NCBI RefSeq assembly: GCF_044324785.1
Contig: NZ_CP172128.1
DNA: 64,000 bases
Direction: 5' to 3' (one strand)
Origin: Escherichia coli
GTDB taxonomy: Bacteria > Pseudomonadota > Gammaproteobacteria > Enterobacterales > Enterobacteriaceae
A program made the position numbers. Positions 47,201 through 53,200 of this stretch are shown here, piece after piece; positions within the stretch are counted from its first letter, which is position 1, and every line of letters starts with the position of its first letter.

Positions 47201-50200
47201 AGACCGCTGCGAACGTAACGGTGCTGCCTGAGCCACTTTTGTGCGCCTTCTGTTTTGATGACCCGGATAAAGGCGTTTCTGGCCAGTGAATACACCGGCG
47301 TGCTGAAACGCCCCTGGTCCCGTTTACTTTTGAGCCTGCAGGAGAGATTGAGGTTGTTCATCAGGGCTACCGCTGCTTTCCGGTCACCGAGGAAGAACTG
47401 TAGGCCAAAGATGGCAAAGAGCGCTTTTTCATGTGGGGCCATGTCTTTCCAGCTGGTCAGTGGTTGCCCCAGTTGCGCCATGAAGCACTGGCGTGTGGAC
47501 GCAACATCGAGCTGCATGTTGCGGATAAGGTTGTTCTGCTCCACAAAGGCTTCGGGGGTTAGAGCGACACGGCGCTCGGGACGTTTTTGTCCGTGGAAGA
47601 GTCTGTTGCTGTCTCCGTCAGCCAGAACGGGGGCGATAGCCGGTGACAGTGATGAAAACAGATGTGGCAGCGTGTGGATATTCAGTGGTCTGCGGGTGAA
47701 GCGGGGCTGGGCCGGATGCTGAAACCACATCCACAGAAAGCCGATCGTCATGGGAAGCAGAATCAGCCAGAGGATCCCCACGGTCTGTGACATGACATCC
47801 AGCCACTGGCTGAAAGTGATCGTTGCAGCGTTGTTGGCGGTGTTGGCCAGCAGGTTATAACGGGGGGCGGCAAAATGGTGAAAAGGCCCCCAGTCAGTCA
47901 TCCCCCACATTGTGTGCAGGATCAGGCAGGTGGCAAAGACGATGTCGGGTAAAAAGAGCCAGATGAGAAGCGCAAAGAGCAGACATATGGTGCCAACGAT
48001 ATACCATATGTTCATCGGGTCTTCTGTTGTGGGGGAGTGTTGGTAAGACACGAGGATTCCTCCATCGATAAATAGATAAATTTCGGGATGAGGCTGAGTG
48101 GAATTAATGCGAACAATCGCCGGTAATGACCGGGCAGGGATGAAATAACCAGGGTATTTTCACAGGAACAGCAGAAGGCAGTGAGAGACAGGCACAAAAA
48201 AACCGACTGGTGAGGTCGGTTTTTTTGCTATTCCGGGGCGGAGTTGGTGACTCTGACCGAAAGGGAAATCACTCTACATCTAACACCATCATAGTAGGCT
48301 GCGCTTCTCTTTTTTGCAATCAGAAAAATGACTATAATCGCTCCGTTAGCTCTGTCTGGTGATGCTTCTGCCCTTTAATAAAATATGCTCAGGTTAAAAA
48401 CCGAAAACCTTCCTGCACTTCCTGCGCCTGTTCCCGTGAGTCAAACATGAGCCGGCTTTTACCCGGAACCCCCAGGAAATATATTCTACATCCACCCACT
48501 ATTTTCCGTATTCTTCATACGGTCCGGATATCACTTTAGTGACAAATGCATCAACCAGGTTCATTTTTACACCTTTCTGTTATTTTTGCTTATTACGACC
48601 AGCAGACAGCAAATATTAAAAATAACGCGGCGGTAAAAATGGCAATTTTTTCCCATACTGTATTTTTTCCATTTATTTGCTTTGAAATGTTTTTTTGCTT
48701 CATATCAGTAAATGATTATTTTTTATTCTGTTTCCTCCAGACCCATGGTGGCACCGGATTTTCATCTGCCCATAATCCCCGTTTAAGGGCACGGGCATCG
48801 CGCTGGAGAGCCGGGAGAGTATAGTCCTTGTTGTAGTCCGGGTATACCCAGGCCGCTCCCTTCCTGATTTGCTCACGATTCGCTTCAGTGCCGTCAGCGG
48901 TATAGACTCTGCCGAGAATACGGTTATATCTGTCGGTCTGTAAGTATTGTACGGTTACAGGCTTACCGGCCACCAGGTCTTTTAACTGAGAGGCAGACCA
49001 GCGTCCAAAGGGCTGTTTCTTTTCCGGTGCATCAATATTTGCCAGGCGGACCCTGACAGTTTTTTTATCCTGTAATATTTCCAGTGTATCACCATCAAGA
49101 ACGCGGATAACGTTTCCCTGAATCTGTGCAGCGCAGAGGGAACCTGAAAAAATAATAGCGAGAGAGAACATATATTTTATCATTTTATTACATCCTTTTT
49201 TATTCATGAAAAACAGGCGGCGTTTATATTACGGAATAATATCGTTAAGTTGAGTTTATGTTTCCGGTAATGTAATGCTTCACGCAGAGCATGAATTCCA
49301 GTAGGCTAATATTCATGATGATATAGTAACAGATATCCGGTGACAGTATGCAGGAACATATTGATTATCAGATTGAGAAATATCAGTTCAGGGCCAGGAA
49401 TGAGTCTCCGCGACTGATGCGCCAGTGGGCAGATGTCATGCGTGAATGCCGTGATACCGGAGCAGGAGCCAGGGAGCGGCTGCGGATTGCCTTACTTAAT
49501 GTTGATTATGTGACCAGTTTTGAACTGCCGTTTCGTCTGCTGTTAACCCGGACACCGCAGATGATTGACAGCGTGCGGCGGGAATGGCAGCTCAGCCAGA
49601 AAAAAGTCGTATTCAATGAGCGGCAGCGGGGATGTGTATACAGTCTGCAGAATGACTTATCCGGCGTGCCGGATAGCTTCAGTTACAGTCTTGCGACGCG
49701 AATACGGCGGGTGGACAGCTATGGCATGACGACGCGTTGTTTCACTGATATAGCCGGGCAGGTTAAAGCCCCGACAGCACGGCTGAAACTGGCGCTGGAA
49801 AGCGGGTTAATTGTCACCGCGCTGGATGGTCTGTTCTGGCTTGGTATTCAGCGTATTGCCGCAGATGTGCAGCGGCTGCGTCAGTCCGGAATGACAATCA
49901 TCACCCGGGATGTTGAGGTCTCAGACTCGCTGACCGGAACCACACGGGTTGTTTCCGGGTACAGCCTTTGATTTATGCAACAAAGTATCGCAGCGTCGAA
50001 TATGAGCTATGGCCAGATTTTTGTTAATCGTGGTTGTTGCAACATGTAAGGCGAATGACCACACTATTCTGGTACGCTCGTAATCACGCTGAAATTCTGC
50101 TTCCTGTCCTGCCGTGATGAGTTCCGACCAGGACATACGGCGAAGTGTATGTCTGTCAGTAATATCCGTCATGAGCTCTCAGCCTCCTCCTTCGTATTTC

Positions 50201-53200
50201 CGTCAGAAACACAAACGCCCCGCAGAGAAAATTCGCCAACATTCTCCTTTTTAATGGCGCGCAATGCATCGCGGCAGGCCCGTTCGGTATGAAAGGCCTG
50301 GCTGTGCACCGCCAGTGTGGGCTGACGGGCATCACCGGAAGAGACATTAAAGGGCGATGAAAGCCAGAAAATCAGTAGCCACATGCGTCACACCTCGTCC
50401 TTTTTATGCGGGTATCTGGACAGAATATTGAGCGCCTGTAATGGCGCTTCATGCATTTCACGGATACAACGGGCATCGGTGATATTTTCCCGGTAATGTG
50501 TGGTTTCCAGCATCATATGATGCATATGGAGCATCCGGGCCAGGGCTGCGCGGAGTTCTTCAATATGTTGTTCATGGGAATGCTGGCGGGGCTGTATCCG
50601 GCAGAGAGGGATAACCTCCACATCATCCGGGTGCGCGCGAAGCCACGCGTCAGTGACTGCAATGTCGTCAGTGTAAAACCATGTGCCGGATGTCCCGTTG
50701 GCCAGAAAACGCATTTTCCAGGCTTCTGGGGTGGCGGTTGTGTTGTTATCTTTCATGGTGCCACCACTCATTCAACAGGCTTAATGCTGTCCAGGCGCAG
50801 TCTGCTCAGACTGTCGTGGCTGCCACAGCGGCGTCCGGTGCTTTTGCTGTAGCACTCCTGCCCCCTGATACACCATGCCGTTGGCGTTTCGTAGAGGCTG
50901 ACACGTCGGGTTTTATCTTTAATGATGAGAAGCCCGGTGTGAGTTTTTGTCTTTTTCATCGGTGGGGTACAAACGCAGAAATTTTGTTGTCATTACATCA
51001 TCAGTTTTAGCCTGCAGAGACGCTGAAAAATCAGCGTTTTCAGACCCTGTTCAGGTTAGTGAATATTCTTGCCTGGCCTTTCGGCAATATCAATCCCCTG
51101 GAGTTGCATGGATATGCCCATACCGTTGACCATGAGGCTGTTTATGGACTGAACACCACATTTCATCATGAGCTCAAAACACAGTGCGCTGAGCATGCCG
51201 AGCGCCTCTTCTGAGGACTGGCAGTGTGTATTCAAAAGAGTATTGAACTGTTTAACGATATCCGGGGTGAGGCACATACTTTGTATTTCGTCTTTCATGA
51301 CTACTCCTTATTTCAGGCATTTTGCATTTTGGGTTAATAACACGAAGCCCGTAGACGGAAAACCTGAGGCGTTCGGATGGGATAATTCCCGGGTATTTTC
51401 CTGTTCCGGATACAAAAAATATAACGGCATGAAAAGGATTGTGGCGGACAGGAAAACAATTAGAATAGCTGCGGGCGCTTGAGGCTGTATGCCGAAAGCG
51501 TTTTGTGGACGGCATGCAGCAGAAAGCCCCAGGCGATCTTTTTATCAATCAACCCAGGGCCCACTGTAATGCCTCAACAACATTATAGTAGCCCGATGAC
51601 GGCCGAAAGGCAATGGAGGGGCTGCGATGCCACAACGAACGTTTTTAATAATGTTAATCGTCGTCTGTGTGACGATACTGTGTTTTGTCTGGATGGTGAG
51701 GGATTCGCTTTGCGGATTTCGTATCGAGCAGGGAAATACGGTGCTTGTGGCAACGTTAGCCTACGAAGTTAAACGTTAACGGGCAACACGGCGGCAGGAC
51801 ATCTGCCGCCGGATTGTTGCGAAGGCTGACCTCAATGCGCCTTGTTTGTCTTTTTTACCGGACGATGGATCCCACTCCTCCTCATCAGTTCGTAGCAGAG
51901 TGTACTCAGCATGGCAAGTGCAGCTTCTGATGATTTACAGTGTGTATTCAGGAGGGTAAGAAATTGTTTAAAAACATCAGGGTTTATACTGGTGCTTTGA
52001 TATTCGTTACTCATAGTATTTCCTTTCAGGTCATTATTACTTCCGGATTTAACATGATGTCTGTAACCATAAAATAATGAACGTGTTCCGGGAGTCCTTG
52101 CCGTGTAGTTTCCCGTAAAAATACTGTTGTGCATTACATGTCATTAGGTGGAAACCGATTGTGGCAGACTGAAAATCGATTAGAATAGCGGCGGGCGCTT
52201 GAGGCTGTATGCTGAAAGCGTTTTGTGGACGGCATGCAGCAGAAAGCCCCAGGCGATTTTTTTATCAATCAACCCAGGGCTCTACTGTAATGCATCGACA
52301 ACATTATAGTAGCCCGATGACGGCCGAAAGGCAATGGAGGGGCTGCGATGCCACAACGAACGTTTTTAATAATGTTAATCGTCGTCTGTGTGACGATACT
52401 GTGTTTTGTCTGGATGGTGAGGGATTCGCTTTGCGGATTCCGTGTCGAGCAGGGAAACACAGTGCTTGTGGCAACGTTAGCCTACGAAGTTAAACGTTAA
52501 CGGGCAACACGGCGGCAGGAAATCTGCCGCCGGATTGTTGCGAAAGCAAACCTCAATGCGCCCTTTTTTACCTGGATTTCTGCAGCGCGTTTCAGCATAG
52601 CATGCAGTTCTGTGCTGATCCTTGCTTCCAGTCGGGCAGTTTGTGTTGCAGATGGCATGATTTGTACTTCCTGAATATACTGAACGGCAAATTGCCGTAT
52701 TGTGCTAATTACAGTCTGATACAGGGACGGCAGACAGGCATTCTGCCTGAAAAGAAAAAGCCGGTTCAGAGAAAACCGGCTGACGGATTACCGTCTAACA
52801 GTTGGTCGCTACCTTACAATACTTCTGCAACAGGCACACCGGCAACTTTTTCCCATTCTTTAACCCGATACCGAATCATCTGCGGGAAACGCTCTTTGTA
52901 CTCATATCCACGTGCAGCCATGGTGTGCATGGTGTTGGCCAGCGTCCTTGCTGAGATGCCGGAGATTTCAAGAGGGATCATCGGCAGACTCACATAGGTG
53001 GTGTGGATTTCCAGCTTGCCGTCTTCAGCAACTGTTCGGGTGAAGTTGTGAATATCCAGACCAATCACATCCATGACATTGTTTGGGTAAATGCGCACAT
53101 ACAGCATGGTGCCGTTTTTAATGTCGATCCCGAAATAGCAACTCTTCGAGAATGACAGTTGCTCGTAATCGCTGGTCGGCGCAAAGGGACTGCTTTCTTT

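Follow-up and report, generated by a model that had tools for sequence, protein, structure and literature searches.

The question raised by the interval between trbA and the pnd/hok-sok loci of an Escherichia coli plasmid is what four very small, closely spaced genes are doing there and whether they belong together. The interval lies in a 64,000-nucleotide stretch of NCBI RefSeq contig NZ_CP172128.1, termed the window, which belongs to an I-complex plasmid of the IncK2/Z type; plasmid pLH10-b-1-A (NZ_CP100531.1; typed IncK2/Z, mating-pair formation class MPF_I) is 100% identical to it across the queried 4.76-kb interval. Along the minus strand the genes run in the order traY, excA, two pnd/hok-sok loci, a gene for an 80-amino-acid protein and then four open reading frames (ORFs), ORF-A, ORF-B, ORF-C and ORF-D, beyond which are a convergent plus-strand gene for a 207-amino-acid helix-turn-helix (HTH) protein, a minus-strand SNase-family nuclease gene (nuc) and trbA-trbB-trbC. 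A first-pass annotation made from the sequence alone had placed the four minus-strand ORFs between the pnd loci and trbA, and ORF calling returns all four there, in a block bounded by trbA (46789-48051) and the two pnd/hok-sok loci. ORF-A to ORF-D form a discrete mobile accessory module of about 1.1 kb that moves between sites, plasmids and pathogenicity islands, and its last gene encodes a divergent relative of the ANR superfamily of anti-regulators.

All four small ORFs are genuine genes under purifying selection. A Nei-Gojobori comparison of the window allele with an allele that is 72% identical at the nucleotide level (locus L005), in which all four reading frames are intact, gives ratios of nonsynonymous to synonymous substitution rates (dN/dS) of 0.15 for ORF-A, 0.15 for ORF-B, 0.08 for ORF-C and 0.25 for ORF-D, with dS at 1.3-2.2. 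The same aligned DNA read in the two off-frames gives ratios of 0.8-2.6 with stops present, and because the in-frame values are low against these the ORFs exceed chance; the lack of conservation that the first-pass annotation had allowed for is not seen. The start-to-stop overlap described there for all four ORFs holds at the C/D junction, a shared ATGA preceded by a strong AAGGAGGAGG Shine-Dalgarno sequence, and does not hold between ORF-B and ORF-C, where a 3-nt gap and a GAGG Shine-Dalgarno are found. At the A/B junction an ATGA overlap requires the upstream ATG of ORF-B, the start assigned by the NCBI Prokaryotic Genome Annotation Pipeline (PGAP) being five codons downstream of it, and in the 72% allele ORF-B starts 10 nt past the stop of ORF-A. 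No evident Shine-Dalgarno sequence precedes ORF-A. ORF-D and the convergent HTH gene share 51 nt at the 3' end of the latter, and ORF-D is uncalled by PGAP on the window plasmid, yet it is called in pathogenicity islands. A sequence scan found no internal terminator-like site within A-D, and a weak sigma-70-like match (TTGATA-17-AAGAAT at 51093-51065, only 9/12 consensus positions) lies just 5' of the leader that precedes ORF-A.

The edges of the module were taken from pairwise BLAST of the window against loci L010, L017 and L004, with the right-hand edge at about 51057. A pO113-like plasmid (L010) has a DUF2569 gene and a phosphoethanolamine transferase gene exactly at the A-D site and retains nuc, the HTH gene, the 80-amino-acid gene and hok. 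Other IncK2/Z plasmids (L016 and L017) carry the 72% allele at a different site, between nuc and trbA, where it occurs with or without a 4.4-kb insertion just upstream that encodes a serine protease autotransporter of the Enterobacteriaceae (SPATE); three contexts of the 72% allele share one 1.26-kb segment ending about 190 nt upstream of its ORF-A. The leader is conserved within each allele, each allele having its own. In a CFT073-type island the window-type allele is found with the 80-amino-acid gene and the 3' end of the HTH gene between sat and iha, and in an LPA-type island the 72% allele is directly 3' of espI. The A-B-C-D order and spacing are constant in every context examined, and the fixed unit is seen only in plasmids and islands of E. 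coli and Shigella. No direct or inverted repeats flank the module, and no Rfam families match inside it. The cassette is present in 1,341 of 5,426 complete E. coli genomes (full-length in 978), at 935 chromosomal and 607 plasmid places; about 362 plasmids carry it, nearly all (about 350) at at least 99% identity, and 213 more carry the 72% allele. Its definition as a single mobile unit common to plasmids and islands is new here.

The block had been described as an accessory unit, tightly packed and co-oriented, and this description is borne out by its variable presence among related plasmids (IncI1, L010, L016 and L017 compared). Its description as an insertion relative to the compact IncI arrangement is correct only with respect to one branch. 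Plasmids of the IncI1/I-gamma type share just the pnd part of the interval and have no nuc, ECs1377-family HTH gene or A-D between trbA and excA (L008); the flanks of the IncI1 interval in R64, namely trbABC, pnd/hok-sok, excA and traY, are the same and in the same orientation, whereas the IncB/O/K/Z branch has the additional genes in a mosaic variable region. In that branch the cassette is a standard, already annotated part and not an unusual insertion, its genes being recorded as hypothetical proteins. The converse suggestion that the ORFs might be known backbone genes of IncI plasmids is therefore right as to annotation and not as to backbone, since they are absent from IncI1/I-gamma, give way to other genes or lie elsewhere in some IncK2/Z and pO113-like plasmids and are dispensable in a published transposon-directed insertion site sequencing (TraDIS) screen.

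That screen covered pMS7163B (IncB/O backbone, IncZ replicon), in which loci 00560, 00570 and 00580 have lengths of 369, 216 and 252 nt (PMC10286972). The lengths equal those of ORF-B, ORF-C and ORF-D, with the same 3-nt gap, 4-nt overlap and 51-nt overlap with the convergent gene, and the loci are taken as B, C and D because the layout in the published table is identical, the comparison being with that table and not with the CP026855 sequence itself. The Log2MPM values are 13.2 (B), 12.6 (C) and 13.0 (D) compared with 0.98 for repA and 7.6-7.8 for parAB (PMC10286972 S1 Table). Conjugation, measured as surface mating between K-12 strains, gives log fold changes (LogFC) of +2.1, +1.3 and +1.6 for B, C and D compared with about -5.7 for the tra genes, and many non-tra genes have similar positive values (PMC10286972), so that the three are read as not required and not as repressors. 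ORF-A is unannotated in that dataset and hence has no value. ORF-B, ORF-C and ORF-D are dispensable for plasmid maintenance and for surface conjugation.

The first-pass annotation recognised no similarity in any of the four proteins, which stands for ORF-B at the level of library matches and not for the others. ORF-A matches phrog_1226 at 7e-17 and also phrog_7520, phrog_5148 and phrog_4183, has 429 relatives in viral contigs and gives a confident AlphaFold2 model (predicted local distance difference test (pLDDT) score 89, predicted template modelling score 0.71). An identity with DUF4222, found beside the ECs1377 homologue in O157, was rejected, there being no Pfam support and the DUF4222 protein matching other PHROGs. 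ORF-C matches phrog_3766 at 2.5e-11, with phage homologues in L011, L070 and L103, and its alignment shows a conserved hydrophobic N terminus (MWxLIFW) and two invariant cysteines; no Pfam match is found even at E<=10, and a DUF1482 assignment was discarded for want of Pfam support. ORF-B has no Pfam, NCBIfam, PHROG, PADLOC or PDB match and its AlphaFold2 model is poor (pLDDT 52) and unusable. In an exhaustive profile search its N-terminal half is restricted to close relatives, and the C-terminal 50 or so amino acids (window 50388-50570, residues ~60-118) form a widespread helical domain fused to varied N termini. This domain has the motif AL-RML-MH-LMM-K-NH-ASFYDAECIREMNEAP-QA, carries no Pfam, NCBIfam or PHROG name and occurs in proteins of 60-220 amino acids (P0096-P0143); a Mu-like phage, for instance, encodes it near Gam in its semi-essential early region. 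An Ead/Ea22-type identity for ORF-B, considered from the "EaD slot" between A and C homologues in Klebsiella phages, was dropped, as BLASTP shows no similarity. For A-D together, PDB sequence searches give no matches, Pfam searches find no enzymatic domains, no Pfam or NCBIfam toxin-antitoxin domains are present, and PADLOC-DB 2.0 gives no match at E<=0.01, only the neighbouring nuclease matching a candidate SNc model.

Homologues of ORF-A and ORF-C are situated among small, translationally coupled accessory ORFs of temperate phages. The small non-essential early clusters of these phages (lambdoid early-left or nin-type, Mu semi-essential and the APSE/YeP-type slot) hold homologues of A, of C, of ANR genes and of the ORF-B C-terminal domain; they differ from the cassette in that the families are mostly single, the order varies and there is no fixed A-B-C-D. 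Among 80 viral loci with an A homologue none has a B relative, 2 have a C relative and 13 have a canonical ANR gene, compared with a background of ANR genes in 22 of 50,697 phage records, a large enrichment, to be read with the caveat that many of the 13 loci are related prophages. The ANR genes in these loci share the strand of A and lie no more than about 600 nt away from it, in three or more arrangements, and score 64-73 bits where scored. One viral locus has the order DNA polymerase, A, a 65-amino-acid ORF, ANR, C and VRR-NUC, and an ANR gene also occurs alone in the slot between polymerase and VRR-NUC, for example in phage YeP5. That A-family genes and ANR genes are repeatedly paired in phages is new here, and the sharing of a phage accessory niche by three of the four cassette families is suggestive of a functional link. 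As a separate observation, the slot between the DNA polymerase and the VRR-NUC-like nuclease in APSE/YeP-type phages is a variable accessory hotspot (L109 2175-2936; L103 3995-5092; L108 3501-3987) whose content differs by phage between a TIR-like gene, an ANR gene, an A-family gene and a C-family gene.

Several comparisons place ORF-D close to the ANR family, whose members Aar of enteroaggregative E. coli 042, Cnr of enterotoxigenic E. coli and Rnr of Citrobacter rodentium are described by model NF033650. The window protein matches this model at 16.2 bits (E=0.007), and all ORF-D variants tested match positions 3-53 of its 54, the family scoring 19-30.7 bits. The ORF-D family profile matches P0174, named by NCBI as an ANR family transcriptional regulator, at E=3.4e-19, and BLASTP aligns ORF-D with P0174 at 41% identity (E=3e-17); P0174 (41.1 bits) and P0167 (32.6 bits) both pass the NF033650 cutoff. 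An hhalign comparison with canonical phage ANRs is gap-free over 41 columns (E=7.2e-5, probability 63%) and spans the helix 1-3 region. The published ANR signature comprises A10, E14, A22, W26, A29, W43 and R47 (PMC4983702); the ORF-D family consensus retains five of the seven (A10, E14, A22, W26 and A29) together with a C-terminal Cys, the spacing from W26 to this Cys is that of canonical phage ANRs, and E14, W26, A29 and the Cys are present in ORF-D itself. ORF-D is 9.49 kDa, within the ANR size limit of <10 kDa, its allelic variants ranging from 74 to 107 amino acids, and like the ANRs it is carried on mobile virulence-associated DNA. It is in addition extended at the N terminus by a conserved LRRMSW sequence, and its C-terminal tail is variable, differing between alleles and contexts. 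Unlike the ANRs, which are lone genes, ORF-D closes a four-gene operon and occurs on plasmids with no AraC/XylS partner nearby. The comparisons indicate that ORF-D is a divergent relative within the ANR superfamily and not a textbook member, and this assignment of a protein that is often uncalled or misnamed is new here. Relatives of ORF-D (P0009, P0014, P0144-P0147 and others) are publicly named "neurotensin receptor R8" or "flagellar biosynthesis protein FlgM"; these names are taken to be misannotations, domain support being absent and the tested proteins matching the ANR model instead. Elsewhere a bona fide ANR gene, that of P0174 (41 bits), is alone at L018 5001-5234 inside the tra region (TraG_N, TraU and TraC_F_IV) of an unrelated conjugative element, and ANR genes within transfer regions may be a recurring theme. 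The small genes beside it were considered as relatives of A, B or C and show no relationship.

The reading that best accommodates these observations, although it is held tentatively and at somewhat less than even confidence, is that A-D would be a mobile accessory operon of phage-early-region genes whose small binding proteins modulate host regulators. ANRs have no DNA-binding domain and bind AraC/XylS activators and H-NS-family proteins, altering their DNA binding (PMC4983702, PMC5570504), Aar contacting the central region of AraC/XylS-type activators as well as H-NS-family silencers (PMC4983702, PMC5570504). By homology ORF-D would most likely act in the same manner: through direct contact with other regulators it would retune transcription of the host or of mobile elements wherever the plasmid or island is carried, and the products of A, B and C would be additional small binding proteins that likewise modulate the host. 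The mode of binding, the targets and a possible cooperation of the four proteins are all inferred. Small H-NS antagonists or modulators with no DNA-binding domain, H-NST, T7 gp5.5 and Hha/YdgT, are analogues of Aar (PMC5570504). Any likeness to ORF-D would lie in mechanism, the binding of a nucleoid-associated silencer by a small protein that horizontally acquired DNA encodes, and not in family membership; it depends only on the ANR homology of ORF-D.

A number of points weigh against a host-modulating operon of this kind. The scores of ORF-D against NF033650 are below the curated cutoff of 32 bits (window 16.2, family best 30.7). The signature is incomplete in the ORF-D family, with W43 replaced by an invariant Leu and R47 by His or Lys, and mutation of the corresponding Trp45 abolished Aar activity (PMC4983702). 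The window protein furthermore has Gly at A10 and Thr at A22, the former typical of plasmid copies and the latter in no other copy examined. Annotation shows no AraC/XylS genes in the window, nor any on the compact carrier pSCU-172-1, for which the PLSDB gene table is incomplete, and an AraC-family gene is near the cassette only in the LPA-type island. The target of ORF-D is uncertain because helix 3 is altered and a cognate AraC gene is absent; host chromosomal AraC-family proteins are possible partners. The confident predicted fold of ORF-A has no informative neighbour in a structure search, and A, B and C have no functional annotation, A and C matching only PHROGs of unknown function. The four families are mostly apart in phages, A being alone in 77 of the 80 loci, so that common descent or a common accessory slot, and not cooperation, may explain their linkage in the cassette.

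A more specific form of the proposal makes A-B-C-D an unrecognised module of temperate phages, I-complex plasmids and islands of extraintestinal pathogenic (ExPEC) and Shiga toxin-producing (STEC) E. coli, in which a retargeted ANR (Trp43 to Leu, no AraC partner) together with A, B and C would counter host silencing or rewire a host regulator upon acquisition; as it stands this is speculative and on balance unlikely. A rival of comparable, low likelihood is that the small proteins disarm restriction, other immune systems or further functions of a new host cell upon entry or induction of the element there, as small proteins from phage early regions often do. The early accessory location of the A and C homologues in phages fits such an anti-defence role, as do the ORF-B C-terminal domain in the Mu-like semi-essential region near Gam, the TIR-like gene that the APSE/YeP-type slot can carry, and the small size of all four proteins with no enzymatic domains. 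The homology of ORF-D, however, favours regulator binding over immune evasion, and no conjugation defect is seen in TraDIS, which used K-12 strains only. The position of the cassette also speaks against an anti-defence role: judged from the established biology of IncI plasmids, the cassette lies outside the leading region, to the trbABC side of oriT, and would be transferred to the recipient last. The leading-region genes ardA, psiB and ssb are present on the window plasmid.

Two further explanations are rather improbable. In the first, the ANR-like protein would be a virulence appendage tuning SPATE or adhesin genes that adjoin it and are controlled by an AraC-type activator, in the way that Aar acts on the AggR regulon, the plasmid copies being a source or a remnant. 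The contexts of some copies argue in its favour, as a SPATE gene immediately precedes the 72% allele both in pEc631_1 and in the LPA-type island, which has an AraC-family gene upstream of espI, the window-type allele is flanked by sat and iha in the CFT073-type island, and known ANRs control virulence regulons. Most carriers, however, including the window, pSCU-172-1 and pDETEC45, have no SPATE or AraC gene near the cassette, and the SPATE segment is a 4.4-kb insertion beside a pre-existing cassette. The second makes the four genes phage-derived hitch-hikers with no current plasmid function, held by linkage in a recombination-prone variable region. Dispensability of the annotated genes in TraDIS, the mosaic region with alternative cargo at the cassette site and the mostly separate occurrence of the families in phages are consistent with this, but it does not account easily for four intact genes under purifying selection across alleles with dS >1, for the full cassette in 978 complete genomes on chromosomes and plasmids alike, or for an order and spacing that do not vary between contexts. 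Least supported, and very improbable, is a defence, exclusion, toxin-antitoxin or abortive-infection cassette (for example a toxic hydrophobic ORF-C with a restrainer, or a block on incoming phage or plasmids), a role in defence having also been proposed in the first-pass annotation: its tightly coupled small genes do lie among type I toxin systems (hok/sok twice and an AgrB-like RNA) and adjoin the exclusion gene excA, and ORF-C has its hydrophobic N terminus, but this stretch is only about 12 residues with no charged n-region, A-D have no PADLOC family and no nuclease, NTPase, TIR or other effector domain, and insertions in B, C and D are harmless to conjugation and, the last gene included, tolerated at normal density, this tolerance arguing against an essential antitoxin.

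Whichever explanation applies, the cassette is among the commonest uncharacterised gene sets of E. coli, occurring in about a quarter of complete genomes, and its carriers include sequence type 131 (ST131) chromosomes, ExPEC and STEC islands and IncB/O/K/Z resistance and virulence plasmids. Work on ANRs in diarrhoeagenic pathogens has until now treated them as solitary inhibitors that feed back on AraC-type virulence activators, and as modulators of H-NS. A divergent ANR in a mobile operon, together with the pairing of A and ANR genes in phages, suggests that mobile elements in general also carry such small anti-regulators as cargo. If ORF-D, as in the host-modulating operon proposed above, binds H-NS- or AraC-family proteins, carriage could shift the virulence, acid-resistance and silencing programmes of the host; if it binds neither, the cassette is an ordinary accessory gene set. 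Were the retargeted-ANR module correct, ANR biology would extend from feedback on virulence regulons to a general strategy of mobile elements.

Table 1. Position of the cassette genes, the module and their neighbours in the window
Feature	Coordinates	Strand	Remarks
ORF-A, 63 aa, pI 10	50768-50959	-	small five-stranded all-beta domain, Enterobacterales phage/plasmid family
ORF-B, 122 aa from ATG at 50756 (PGAP start)	50388-50756	-	127 aa with start 50771
ORF-C, 71 aa	50169-50384	-	phage family; hydrophobic N terminus, two invariant Cys
ORF-D, 83 aa, 9.49 kDa, pI 9.7	49921-50172	-	divergent ANR superfamily protein
Cassette leader, 96-98 nt	50960-51057	-	reaches stop codon of upstream 80-aa gene
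Mobile module, D through A plus leader	49944-51057	-	window-unique segment in pairwise BLAST
207-aa ECs1377-family winged-HTH gene, non-cassette neighbour	49348-49971	+	NF052300 2.6e-90; Pfam HTH_39
Secreted SNase-family thermonuclease gene, non-cassette neighbour	48716-49207 (PGAP start 49183)	-	Pfam SNase E=1.2e-22
80-aa gene upstream of cassette, strong Shine-Dalgarno	51056-51298	-	ORF call; kept in plasmids without A-D

The genes on either side of the module are listed in Table 1. The convergent 207-amino-acid ORF and the SNase-like nuclease had been recognised from the start and are confirmed, the nuclease by its hydrophobic N terminus and by Pfam, NCBIfam and PHROG nuclease matches. They had also been counted with the four ORFs, from which they separate: both occur independently of the cassette, the ECs1377-family gene being found with no A-D in P4/CP4-type islands and kept where A-D are absent or relocated, and the nuclease and HTH genes are independent neighbours outside the cassette. 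The 80-amino-acid upstream gene was considered as part of the module and is excluded by the module edge, being retained in L010 and L017; an IncI1 counterpart of it was not found. A terminator-like hairpin for the HTH gene is located inside the 3' end of ORF-D (49946-49967, plus strand), and convergent transcription over 49921-49971 could affect both ORF-D and the HTH gene.

The pnd/hok-sok locus is duplicated on the plus strand (51473-51779 and 52193-52500), with two Rfam sok matches of 123 and 120 bits. Each copy is followed by a small paralogous gene on the opposite strand (51056-51298, the 80-amino-acid gene, and 51832-52134, 100 amino acids), the two products being 60% identical over 50 residues (5e-23). 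Between trbA and nuc is an AgrB-type antisense RNA (RF02891; 48194-48283, minus strand) scoring 50 bits against a gathering score of 40. Related plasmids have one or two dqlB genes at this AgrB-like RNA region; tblastn of 48000-49300 on both strands finds no intact dqlB/DinQ-like toxin ORF, and the RNA may be an orphan antitoxin RNA. At about 48392-48567 on the minus strand a 58-amino-acid gene is broken by an in-frame stop and a frameshift; related plasmids have it intact (L002 5379-5555). The gene that seems to correspond to it in pMS7163B (locus 00610, 177 nt) has the top positive conjugation LogFC of +4.69 (PMC10286972), and the product may restrain transfer.

SPATE genes repeatedly adjoin the nuc/HTH/cassette region in plasmids and islands, namely epeA (L010 1-3606), espP (L009 682-4581), an S6 peptidase gene (L016 7072-11163), espI (L005 13058-17149) and sat (L004 2027-5914), and the segments in islands resemble fragments of I-complex plasmids, unless the derivation runs the other way. 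Upstream of trbC, in an IS1414 transposase region, a plasmid table predicts astA, encoding the EAST1 heat-stable enterotoxin, at about 42633-42746.

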